Shown here piece by piece: positions 2,422 through 12,655 of a stretch of 12,655 bases of DNA (within the stretch, counting starts at the first letter, position 1; each line of letters begins with the position of its first letter). The position numbers and the translations under genes are program-made. The notes below the pieces were generated by a model. It ran no database searches. It was not told where the DNA came from and was given only the letters and a program-made list of their open reading frames with translations. This DNA comes from Elysia marginata. Its lineage: Eukaryota. Location: the NCBI GenBank assembly GCA_019649035.1, contig BMAT01003344.1, forward strand, positions 6,953 to 19,607. The letters are read 5' to 3'.

Positions 2422-2527
2422 ATGTCCAAGAAACAAGATTTACATTTAAAGAATTCCCTGCTGGATCAGTGGTCCAAATCCAAGGGATCAAGCCAAGGCT
2501 TATCAGGACACCTGACTCTCACCTCAA
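2422..2527 (+). CDS. TEP1: TEP1-like gene, predicted exon 1 (start codon at 2422). Encodes MSKKQDLHLKNSLLDQWSKSKGSSQGLSGHLTLTS and ends in phase 1.
   Basis: This is the first in-frame ATG after a TGA at 2407, with A at -3. The open frame runs to the donor a|GTATGA at 2528. The dangling single nucleotide (phase 1) exactly matches the phase needed by the next exon, whose first two nucleotides complete a codon (AGT = Ser). The S-rich composition continues into exon 2. An upstream non-coding exon is not excluded. Confidence 0.5.
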
Positions 2528-3379
2528 GTATGATCTGTACTTTTGTATTCTTCTATCAGTTTTATTTTAGTGAATTGTTAAAATGAAAGCACATAATGAT
2601 GTAGTCTATGAGTACAACTGTAGTGTATGGGATATAAGTGGAAGAATGAGATTGACAGAATGAAAGGAGAGTGTCACTCCTTTGTGTTGGTTAGTTTAAA
2701 GTGACTTTCTTTGTTATGTTTCTCCTGTTCCGGTTCCTGTGTTTTTACATTGTTCTGCTGTAGTCAAACTGGTTGGAATAAAACAATGTCCTAATCTTCT
2801 GTCATCTTCGAGTTCTTTATGTTGTATAATTTGCCACCAGTAAAAAAAACCCAGTGCCTCTCATATAATTACAAAAAATGATGGCAACTGTTCCTAATTT
2901 TGTTTGTTCTGAGTCCAAAGGCTCAAGAATAAAATCATTGCCGATCACCCCTTCCTCAAAAGAAAAAAAAACCAACAAAAATGCAAATATGAAAATGTTA
3001 CTAAAAACAAAAAAAACAACCAATTTTAAGGCAAATTGGTTCAGTTTTCTGAAGTATATTAGCTAAAATACAAGTCTTTTTACTTTGAAACATATTTTTC
3101 CACATTACATGATACTAACAAGAGTCATGCATGTCCATCAGGTTAAACATTGTAGAAAGTAAGGCTTTCCTTTATTATTTAAAACTGTAAGAATGCATCA
3201 TCGCATAATTCAAATCTTGCGCATTAAGCTTCTTCTTCTTTTTCCCCTCAATTACTTCTACTGCTTCTTAAATCAATGCTGTGAACAGTTTTATGTAAAA
3301 ACAATCATAAAGCTTGCAATGCTTCTCTGCAAATCTGAGAAGTTTGTCATTCGACCAAATATTTTTGTTCCATTTTCAG

Positions 3380-4002
3380 GTTTATTGAAGCCGAACACCA
3401 AATCCTCACTAAATACAGAAGATGCCAAATCAAAATTAAGTTTGTCTTCAACGGTCCTCAGTTTGTCAACAAGTGGCAGCAGTTCTGCTTTGTTTTCCTC
3501 CCATGGATCTCTAAATTTACAAAGTTCCAGTTTGCTTCAGCAATATACTTTGAGCAACCCACTCCTAAGCACCTCCTACATTAAAAAAGATTCAACAGGA
3601 AGCTCTGCTCCAAGCAAGTCATCTTTATCTTCCACCCTTTCTCGCCTGACTTTGAAGCCTGAAACATCAAGCAAGAATATCTTTGGTAGTGTGGAAAAAA
3701 AGTATGCAACACCAACCTCAAATATTTCTCAGCGAGCTAGCCCTGCAAAGTCACTGTCTAGGAAGAGGGTGCTAAAAGGTGAAGGGTTAGTCCTGAAAAA
3801 AAAGGTTGTGGAAGGGAAAGATTATGAAGCAACAGCATTGGTGGTTAAACGGCATACTGTCAAACCACCAGATTACACCATCAGAAGTGACCGCGAGGAT
3901 GAATTTAAAATCGTAAACCAGTCAAAGTTTTACGTGGCAACATTAGAAGTGCAATCTAAAACAGGAGTTGGGAAGTCTCTAGCAGATGTTACTGCTATGA
4001 AG
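3380..4002 (+). CDS. TEP1: TEP1-like exon 2. Encodes a long Ser/Thr/Lys-rich low-complexity region (LLKPNTKSSLNTEDAKSKLSLSSTVLSLSTSGSSSALFSS...) followed by ...KDYEATALVVKRHTVKPPDYTIRSDREDEFKIVNQSKFYVATLEVQSKTGVGKSLADVTAMK.
   Basis: Acceptor is ccattttcAG|g at 3378-3379, preceded by a polypyrimidine tract. An open frame of 208 codons in AT-rich DNA runs from there to the donor AAG|GTAAAT at 4003. The frame is phase-compatible with exon 1 and exon 3. Confidence 0.75.
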
Positions 4003-4720
4003 GTAAATCACAAATGAGAAAAGTTTTAAATTGTCTCTCTGTATCATTTTTTTCTTCCATTAATGCTTGACTATAGGGTGTGCAATTTAAGTTATTTAAA
4101 GTAAATAACAAGAGTTTTGACACCATTATTATTGAAATGGTAAATATTACATTAGCTCTTGGGGACACAAACAGACTGCAATAAATAACATACATGAGAG
4201 ATAAAAATTGCAATGCGCTATTCATTACAGAACGAGTGTGCTTCAGTACTACGTGACAAATTACAATGAAATTGCAAAGAATTACATGCTATAAAAAATG
4301 GCATAGGTAACAAAGTACAAGATAAGGGATATAATTGTGGCATTTATGAATTATTGGCTCAAATGGATTTTAGCTTACACATTATTAGAAGAAAAGTTTA
4401 TGTTCTTAATGTTAATAGTTATATATTGCTAATTATTGTATAGATAAGTTCACAGCTTATTTGGTTTTATAAATGTACCTGTATGCCAAAGCAAGAATTT
4501 TATGAAATACAAAAAGTTCAGGTTACACATCTTATAAACATCCGCATTCCAGTACATTTGGGATCTTGCCGCTGATAGTGCACTCAGTTTCCCACCGCTG
4601 CTTTGGAGTTATGATAAAAAGTTGATCATAAATGTTTCTACACACACACAAATTAAGATATCAAACCATTGCTTTTGCTTATAGTTAAAATATAAAAAAA
4701 ACCATTTAAGTTAGCATGTC

Positions 4721-4863
4721 TAAATTCTAATCTGTTTACAATGCATGATCATTTAAAGGACATCAAATGTATATTAATCTCTGACACAGCAAATTTAAAT
4801 TCTAACCTGTTTACAATGCATGATCATTTAAGGGTTATCAAATGTATATTTACCTCTGATACT
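4721..4863. repeat. Tandem duplication, two copies of a ~75-bp unit (taaattctaa[t/c]ctgtttacaatgcatgatcatttaa.gg..atcaaatgtatatt...ctctga.ac), ~93% identical.
   Basis: Direct reading: copy 1 is 4721-4795 and copy 2 is 4796-4863. Lies in intron 2 of the TEP1-like gene. Confidence 0.85.
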
Positions 4864-5528
4864 GATGGATCAAGAGTCAAGCTAGACTCACAAGTATTCA
4901 CCAACATTTTGATTTAAGGTCTGACTGGAGAACTTGGAGAATAAATGAGTTGAGGCTTGATCTAGCTCTCCCTTCTCTCAGTGAGAGAATGAGAATCGAT
5001 TTCTATTTAATTATTACACATAGGAGCAGTACTGTTAACTAAAGGTGAATACCTGTTGCTAGCTTGCCTGCTGGATTGCGAGTGAAACTTAAACTTTCTG
5101 ATCCTAAGTTGATTTTTAAGGCTAAAGTGCTTGTTGAAGCATTGTGGGAAAATGTCTACAATCTCAAATGTTGGGAATTTCCTGGACTGCATAAATGTTA
5201 TCACTTCTTAAAGGGCAGCGTTGCAAGTTACTAACATATCATAGGACATTAAAGAATTACTAACCATGACAATTGTTAACCCCATTTTACAAAGTATTGT
5301 AAAGACAAATATATATTCAAGAAGTCTTATTCCTCTTCTTCAAAGTGGATCCTTGATGGATGTTGCCTCCCTCACAAACTGTTAGAATTTCTGTCCGTCA
5401 TACACTCTTGAACCCTGTATCAGTTGTTATTTTCAGCCTTTCTGCAATATCTTGCTGCCATCATGTTTTAGGTCTTCCCTGGCCCTGCTATGCTCTACTG
5501 CGCCCTCCATGCATAATATCTCTCAATT

Positions 5529-11554: not shown

Positions 11555-11670
11555 GTAAGTATGATATTGCGTTTTTTGCAAGGTTTCAAATACTTTGTCA
11601 CACATTACATACCACAGGCTAATGCAAACTTAATGCTCCTCCATTTTCACCTCCATCTACTTTTTTTCAC

Positions 11671-11732
11671 TCTTCTTCTTCTTCTTCTCCTCCTCCTCCT
11701 CCTCCTCCTCCTCCTCCTCCTTCTTCTTCTTC
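11671..11732. repeat. Compound trinucleotide microsatellite (CTT)5(CTC)12(CTT)4 in intron 10.
   Basis: Direct reading tcttcttcttcttcttctcctcctcctcc...ttcttcttcttc. The + ORF 11543..11752 (poly-L) is an artefact of it. Confidence 0.95.
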
Positions 11733-11883
11733 ATATGTTTTCTCTATTGTAACTCTGGAAAATTTGTATTATTGCCAATTATTACATCTTGTTTTGAAAT
11801 ACTACTAATTGTTCTGTCTTTCCTCTATATAACCATGAAACAGTATTTTTTTTATTATTATCAACTGTACTTCTTGTCTTGCA

Positions 11884-11998
11884 GAGAGGGACATAATTGA
11901 ATCAGCTTTAGCCAAAGAACAAGGCAGCATAGGCAGAGGCCGATTCAGCAGAGGCAGGGGAACAAGAGGCGGGACTGGACGTTTTGGTGTCACTAGAG
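11884..11998 (+). CDS. TEP1: TEP1-like exon 11, encoding an RGG/RG box. Entering frame: (Q)RDIIESALAKEQGSIGRG. After an apparent +1 frameshift at the CCC run at 11939-11941: RFSRGRGTRGGTGRFGVTRG, plus a dangling g. As written, the entering frame hits TAG at 11994.
   Basis: Strong acceptor tacttcttgtcttgcAG|ag and strong donor AGAg|GTAAAA at 11999. The entering frame is dictated by exon 10 phase. The only frame open through the good donor that continues in phase into exon 12 is +1 relative to it. AGAGGC (Arg-Gly) units occur in the entering frame before 11940 and in the shifted frame after it. Confidence 0.55.
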
Positions 11999-12564
11999 GT
12001 AAAATTGTATATAAACAAGGTTTGACAAAAATTCGAATTAAGAAAAGGGTTTCACATAAAGAGCTAGAAAATACTTTCTTCCTTGAGATGTAGATTGGAG
12101 AAAATATAATATGTTGCTATATCTTTTTTTCACACTGTGCTGAGACATGGCCTACAAAATACACACTCACACCCACAAGGCTATCCTGTGATAAATTTAA
12201 TCCTGTCAGACACTAGGCTAGGCCTGAAGTCTTCTAACATGCTCTGAAACTACACATAGCCTTGAAAGAAGGAACGAAGCAAACAGTGCTATAAAAAAAA
12301 TGCAGTGCATATTGAAAATATTGAAAATGTCTGGGTTGACTTGGTTTGTTCTGGAATACAATGCCAAGATTAAGCGTTCGACTTAAATTAAGAAAAAGTG
12401 CATACCTGGATTGTCCCCCTTGAAAAATTTATTTTGTGAGAATGCTATGGAACATTTGCTCGATTGTATGGATTTTCCAAGTTAAAGAAAGTAAGTTTAG
12501 TTTACTGTACTAATCATTGTCAAATTCATTCTGTTACTCATGGATTTCATAATTTTTTATGCAG

Positions 12565-12655
12565 GTGGAGTTCAGAAACTTTCTAGAGGTGGCAAGAAAG
12601 GAGGACAAACAGAGTGGTGGGTCAGGAAAAAGCTTAAGAAAGAAGGCCAGGATGG
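12565..12655 (+). CDS. TEP1: TEP1-like exon 12 (partial, runs off the window): (G)GVQKLSRGGKKGGQTEWWVRKKLKKEGQDG...
   Basis: Acceptor ttttttatgcAG|gtg. In phase with the shifted frame of exon 11 (g+gt = Gly). Continues the Gly/Arg/Lys-rich composition. No stop before the window end. Confidence 0.65.
   Translation, partial: MEFRNFLEVARKEDKQSGGSGKSLRKKARM

Follow-up and report, generated by a model that had tools for sequence, protein, structure and literature searches.

The stretch of DNA analysed here, referred to as the window, comprises 12,655 nucleotides of the forward strand of contig BMAT01003344.1 (positions 6,953 to 19,607; assembly GCA_019649035.1) from the sacoglossan sea slug Elysia marginata. 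Positions 2422-12655 of the window can be assigned with high confidence to the 5′ part of a single orthologue of TEP1, the vault-associated TROVE protein. The gene is intact in the window; it is an ordinary orthologue, which the GenBank annotation already carries under the same name.

A first-pass annotation, made by reading the letters, had proposed a chain of 12 phase-compatible GT-AG exons on the + strand with about 670 codons, and this was borne out. When joined, the 12 exons give 2015 nt, or 671 codons, with no stops; read in its other two frames, the joined sequence contains 44 and 48. All 11 introns begin with GT and end with AG, a pyrimidine-rich tract lies ahead of each acceptor, and the exon phases are compatible. 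The GC content is 41.3% in the exons and 31.8% in the introns. The six peptide blocks picked out in the first pass were all located on the + strand, at 6956-7021, 7992-8054 together with 8312-8323 (a block interrupted by an intron), 9727-9783, 10091-10183, 11076-11135 and 11482-11514.

The TROVE assignment, which the first pass had left to a profile search, was confirmed by a Pfam scan of the 671-residue model. One family was found, TROVE (PF05731), with 334.4 bits (cutoff 23) and E=1.7e-99. The match runs from residue 245 to residue 607, corresponding to profile positions 22-368 of 442, and the final sixth of the domain falls past the window end; exons 3-10 encode about 80% of the TROVE module. 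Residues 37-660 of the model are letter-for-letter identical to residues 22-645 of a deposited protein, GFS23870.1 (UniRef100_A0AAV4JQ59, P0020 below), a 1542-residue sequence from a 67-kb contig named 'telomerase protein component 1 [Elysia marginata]'. The window therefore holds the same gene, and a gene model made independently has exactly these exons 2-12 and the same ten introns; the two models differ in the start, the exon 12 donor and the LINE-like (long interspersed nuclear element) C-terminus of P0020. Because of this identity and the strength of the TROVE match, the exon chain is not a product of chance. When orthologues were compared with the window by tblastn, exons 3-5 and 7-10 were covered with contiguous query coordinates, and the TROVE region is therefore without a missing exon. 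A multiple alignment backs the junction of exons 2 and 3 as well as the RGG...WW segment encoded by exons 11-12.

The first pass had also favoured TEP1 over Ro60, and the homology searches agreed. The best match is the same-species protein just described, followed by TEP1-like proteins. A word-indexed search returned TROVE proteins named 'telomerase protein component 1', 'telomerase protein component 1-like' or 'telomerase component p80-like', the best being the 'p80-like' protein of the oyster Saccostrea cucullata (P0001); P0020 was itself among the best matches of an exhaustive HMMER search with P0001. Against TEP1-type proteins the model scored 220-516 bits, a range that includes a fish TEP1 fragment (P0012; 45% identity, E=3e-63). 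The TROVE blocks stand in the same order as in vertebrate TEP1 (human Q99973; fish P0012), as had been claimed, with about 45% identity. In contrast, neither BLASTP nor phmmer matched human Ro60 to the model at E≤10. A search of the PDB with the model, again at E≤10, did not retrieve human Ro60 (9nen), Xenopus Ro60 (1yvp) or Deinococcus Rsr (2nvo), all three of which were in the library. Cellular Ro60 was likewise missed when the PDB was searched with a profile built from nine TEP1-like sequences, which is in line with the distance between the two families. The sole PDB sequence match was to the TROVE protein of Thermus phage phiLo (9l5y / 9kop, called Ro60 by its depositors), with 36.9 bits and E=1.6e-8 over residues 513-590 of the model. 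As this phage protein matches at the sequence level and cellular Ro60 and Rsr do not, it is the nearer one to TEP1-type sequence around LPFMAMLRNLRN..FPFRF.

Evidence on the fold comes from the AlphaFold model of the oyster orthologue P0001, not of the window protein itself. This model is confident over the TROVE and vWA parts (residues 290-458, 515-694 and 713-940), where most 10-residue blocks have a predicted local distance difference test score (pLDDT) of 80-98. Residues 1-285, equivalent to the exon 2 region, and residues 459-514, the counterpart of the exon 6 insert, have pLDDT <50, and the region matching the RGG segment of exons 11-12 is disordered. When the model was compared with the PDB using Foldseek, the top ten hits were all Ro60, Rsr or phage TROVE structures. 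These matches had E=6e-12 to 7e-8 over approximately 640-690 alignment columns at 13-16% identity, and the vWA domain also matched vWF-A and TFIIH p44 domains. The oyster model thus shares with Ro60/Rsr (9nen, 1yvp, 2nvo) and phage phiLo Ro60 (9l5y, 9kop) a helical-repeat ring followed by vWA, and the mechanism of RNA binding is presumably shared as well.

This likeness of fold, together with a Pfam TROVE model that spans both families and a weak match to a phage protein bearing the Ro60 name, is what could be said for the window gene being an orthologue of Ro60 (TROVE2), a TROVE+vWA protein of about 540 residues that binds Y RNA. The probability of this is negligible. Ro60 has neither the long N-terminal extension nor the NADase, NACHT and WD40 parts of TEP1, whereas the Elysia model has 244 residues ahead of TROVE and the gene product runs on into DUF4062 and an NTPase. 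With the two Ro60 proteins and Rsr unmatched at a threshold where TEP1-type proteins score hundreds of bits, an identity as Ro60 is refuted.

Assignment to TEP1 is also consistent with what lies beyond the window in P0020. The vWA region after TROVE is recognised as DUF5920 (47.8 bits, cutoff 27). DUF4062 follows at residues 856-964 (60.9 bits, cutoff 24.7), with the motif VFISSTFRDMHGERDLL from residue 857. The NTPase region matches NPHP3_N (27.2 bits, cutoff 24.8) and has a Walker A motif, GKMGSGKT, at residue 1120; a P-loop STAND NTPase is present. The first-pass annotation had placed a NACHT part downstream; DUF4062, the Walker A motif and the NPHP3_N match are in keeping with this, but the NACHT profile itself stays below its cutoff (23.4 versus 26.7 bits). 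Vertebrate TEP1 has the same downstream layout, vWA/DUF5920, DUF4062 and NACHT, the NACHT part of P0020 being a putative one. The nearest relatives are TEP1-like proteins of 2300-2950 residues, and in the HMMER search with P0001 63 of the 143 new representative matches had at least 2000 residues. All three of the scanned relatives longer than 2300 residues (P0016, P0018 and P0019) carry WD40 and the TEP1-specific Beta-prop_TEP1 domains in Pfam: the scallop protein (Mizuhopecten yessoensis XP_021378535.1, P0016; 2701 residues) has TROVE, WD40, Beta-prop_TEP1_2nd and Beta-prop_TEP1_C, and P0018 also has DUF4062. Molluscs thus retain the full TROVE-vWA-DUF4062-NTPase layout, which is relevant at a time when TEP1 is being recast as a STAND protein with TIR-like NADase function in vaults.

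Under a second alternative, no functional NACHT/WD40 part would follow, either because the gene belongs to a short, TROVE-only paralogue ('telomerase p80-like') or because insertion of a retroelement has truncated a TEP1 gene or made it a pseudogene. The p80-like name that NCBI gives to the oyster relative and the many matches shorter than 1000 residues point in this direction, but some of the short matches are plainly not full-length (P0001 from oyster is marked partial, and P0003 comes from a 3 kb contig) and the close relatives of the oyster protein have the lengths given above. P0020 does end, at 1542 residues, in sequence resembling a LINE endonuclease, and LINE-like debris is found in intron 2. 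A gene predictor entering an intronic LINE is, however, a common artefact, and P0020 extends to DUF4062 and the P-loop NTPase before that point. In the window the frame is intact over 12 exons and the conserved blocks are kept, with 60-75% identity to orthologues, so that the pseudogene reading is rejected for this part; overall, a truncated or TROVE-only gene is considered very unlikely.

Several points nevertheless weigh against assignment to a complete, vault-associated TEP1. Only the first 671 codons fall inside the window, and the downstream parts depend on GFS23870.1, an imperfect automatic gene model with a probably wrong start, a probable skip of about 75 residues and a C-terminus fused to LINE-endonuclease-like sequence. 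This model stops ahead of any WD40 repeat. The TEP1_N repeats of vertebrate TEP1 are absent from the Elysia model, with no Pfam match at E≤0.1. TEP1_N is also missing from the Pfam tables of the scanned invertebrate relatives P0001, P0002 and P0003; these four 30-residue repeats are probably vertebrate-specific and not defining for TEP1. Finally, vault association in Elysia is proposed purely by orthology.

The TROVE part of TEP1 binds RNA, and vWA, NACHT and WD40 parts come after it (PMC7916137). In vertebrate TEP1 the TROVE ring with vWA has limited specificity in its binding of vault RNA and telomerase RNA, and it keeps vault RNA in the MVP particle (PMC7916137). In reconstituted vaults, DUF4062 of TEP1 is active as a TIR-like NADase (bioRxiv 10.64898/2026.05.01.722283). 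TEP1 orthologues have been defined by a TROVE/VWA pair N-terminal to TeTIR-NACHT-WD40, and their activity examined out to sponge (bioRxiv 10.64898/2026.09.21.753143). Sea urchin has vaults with candidate TEP1 homologues (PMC550661). The first pass had described invertebrate orthologues as poorly characterised. This holds in that they have been little studied experimentally; they are, however, routinely annotated, and the present gene is no discovery.

The Elysia protein is most likely organised as follows. Exons 1-2 encode a Ser/Leu-rich N-terminal region, predicted to be disordered, and exons 3-10 the TROVE part, predicted to fold into an RNA-binding ring of alpha-helices like that of Ro60. 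Two further segments, in exon 6 and in exons 11-12, are predicted disordered inserts, the first Lys-rich and then acidic, the second RGG-rich. Beyond the window, the end of TROVE, vWA, a DUF4062 (TeTIR) TIR-like NADase and a NACHT-type STAND ATPase are predicted, with WD40 propellers expected by orthology. If the protein behaves as vertebrate TEP1 does, the TROVE/vWA unit would bind small structured RNA polymerase III RNAs (vault RNA) and tether them in the MVP vault shell, and the NADase-NACHT-WD40 part would act as a STAND-type enzymatic and assembly module.

The molluscan TEP1-like proteins compared, those of M. yessoensis, Solemya velum (KAL5022413.1, P0017) and S. cucullata, have the same order of parts as the Elysia protein: a Ser/Leu-rich N-terminus with SLLxxWS, TROVE with a Lys-rich/acidic insert, an RGG linker and WW. 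Identity to Elysia is 50-60% overall and 60-75% in the conserved blocks. The inserts vary between species in length and composition, the first being Lys-rich in Elysia and made of RGG repeats in oyster. The fish fragment P0012, the one vertebrate sequence aligned, is without the RGG and Lys-rich inserts, which on this alignment appear to be lineage-specific. Where vertebrate TEP1 has its 30-residue repeats, Elysia has instead a low-complexity Ser/Leu region. It is conceivable, though unlikely, that the exon 1 motif MSxKQ..L.L..SLL..WS and the Ser/Leu-rich tail are an invertebrate counterpart of the TEP1_N repeats, serving for instance as a signal for vault targeting or for docking to MVP, and that the RGG and Lys-rich inserts of this lineage give the TROVE ring a second surface for non-specific RNA binding. 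The motif is clearly common to Solemya; a shorter core, (SLL/NLV)xxWS, is much weaker in oyster and scallop.

The exons, all on the + strand, have the following content. Exon 1 (2422-2527) encodes residues 1-35 and the first base of codon 36; it has the start codon and the motif just mentioned, and ends at a GTATGA donor. Exon 2 (3380-4002; residues 36-243) is the Ser/Leu/Lys-rich low-complexity N-terminal region, predicted to be disordered and equal to P0020 residues 22-228, and its C-terminal part (KPPDYTIRSD...VTAMK) can be aligned with mollusc and amphioxus orthologues. TROVE begins in exon 3 (6447-6581; residues 244-288), which was matched by tblastn with P0001, P0002 and P0014 and in which the Pfam match starts, at residue 245. 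Exon 4 (6860-7021; residues 289-342) encodes TROVE helices with the block KKYFCASIALPSDWIEVAQIFQ and an invariant LPSDW. Exon 5 (7959-8055; residues 343-374 and the first base of codon 375) carries the block LPAALRKAMIMKFTDFDEYQL, and the intron between exons 5 and 6 divides the Ala codon of QLAKYN (G | CC). Exon 6 (8313-8506; residues 375-439) continues with AKYN and then a Lys-rich followed by an acidic/Ser-rich insert within TROVE, predicted to be disordered; the exon is identical to P0020, and the length of the insert is variable among the aligned orthologues.

The next three blocks are FTIKQLIRKLHIKEPVQYV in exon 7 (9670-9803; residues 440-484), AGKRMKLAVPETWETQVSLKGNNAKTWEDLI in exon 8 (10027-10184; residues 484-537), which has 75% identity to the oyster orthologue, and KLPFMAMLRNLRNLIKAGIS in exon 9 (11068-11177; residues 537-573), the stretch that also matches phage TROVE protein 9l5y. 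Exon 10 (11464-11554; residues 574-604) has the block KQFPFRFFSAY; exons 7 to 10 were each found by tblastn, and the Pfam match ends just after, at residue 607. Exon 11 (11885-11998; residues 604-642), again identical to P0020, is an Arg/Gly-rich (RGG-type) linker, and RGG tracts are present at the same position in the oyster, scallop and Solemya orthologues. Exon 12 (12565-12655; residues 642-671) is cut by the window end and finishes ...GGKKGGQTEWWVRKKLKKEGQD.

The comparison with P0020 suggests some fixes to the deposited gene model. GFS23870.1 starts at the ATG at 3319, inside intron 1, so that 61 nt of that intron (3319-3379) are read as protein (MLLCKSEKFVIRPNIFVPFSG...), at P0020 residues 1-21, and exon 1 is absent. 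The base at -3 of the ATG at 2422 is A, and a TGA stands in the same frame five codons before that ATG. From Met1 onward the exon 1 peptide, MSKKQDLHLKNSLLDQWSKSKGSSQGLSG, can be aligned with the N-terminus of P0017, the orthologue from Solemya velum, MSFKQERLSLESSLLSKWSLDSSKYGLSG, with a score of 56 that none of 500 shuffles reached; no similarity to the same N-terminus was found for the deposited start. On this evidence the coding sequence probably begins with exon 1 (2422-2527). Positions 2171-2312 are taken up by a microsatellite of approximately 47 trinucleotide units, (CTA)n/(CTG)n/(CTC)n, which stops some 110 nt short of the ATG at 2422 and lies in what is presumed to be the 5′ untranslated region or promoter region.

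At the other end of the window, GFS23870.1 leaves exon 12 at a donor GT at 12621, directly after ...TEWW, and resumes at LREISVLMGLMCKY, the junction being at P0020 residues 645-646. About 75 residues omitted at this point are kept by all the orthologues (...RYKKALD.AVKIAT.YNV.PI.G...). The TROVE match of P0020 stops at profile position 368 of 442 because these conserved residues are dropped; those of the orthologues reach 442. It is probable that the donor at 12621 is false and that in the deposited model exon 12 is cut short, with the loss of about 75 conserved TROVE residues. Past TEWW the frame of the window reads VRKKLKKEGQD, and the relatives continue WWLDKKKNK, WWIEKKNKQKEEKK or WWLDRKKKRDEQ; as a sign that exon 12 reads on, this likeness is suggestive only, the segment being Lys-rich and the window ending there. 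From about residue 1385 to residue 1542, the C-terminus of P0020 resembles a LINE endonuclease, with a sub-threshold match to Exo_endo_phos_2 (20.7 bits), and the gene predictor probably ran into an intronic retroelement here. The value of these probable fixes to GFS23870.1, namely the first exon with its start codon and the reading on of exon 12, is modest, and beyond annotation quality they have little significance.

The remaining features of the window are repeats and debris. A tRNA search of the window found none, and an Rfam search gave no credible family; a match to mir-703 at 12417-12483 in intron 11 (28.6 bits against a gathering score of 88, E=0.033) was taken as chance. At positions 1-1030, upstream of the gene, a unit of about 421 bp occurs in approximately 2.4 tandem copies that are 89-99% identical. 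It contains a GGTTCGAATC box resembling a tRNA T-arm; ARAGORN found no tRNA and Rfam nothing in the array, which may be a satellite or derived from a SINE (short interspersed nuclear element). Intron 2 contains broken open reading frames on the minus strand, at approximately 5340-6210, that resemble the C-terminal part of a non-LTR (long terminal repeat) retrotransposon reverse transcriptase (IHELHYSDYIVL..., FIYLGAKF...RRRLATAIIRLKKL..W). No Pfam family was matched by these frames at E≤0.01; judged from motifs read by eye, they read like decayed LINE reverse-transcriptase debris lying antisense to the gene. The same intron has a 75-bp unit in tandem duplicate at 4713-4862, with copies 87-90% identical, and a (CTC)n/(CTT)n microsatellite is present in intron 10, at 11675-11732.

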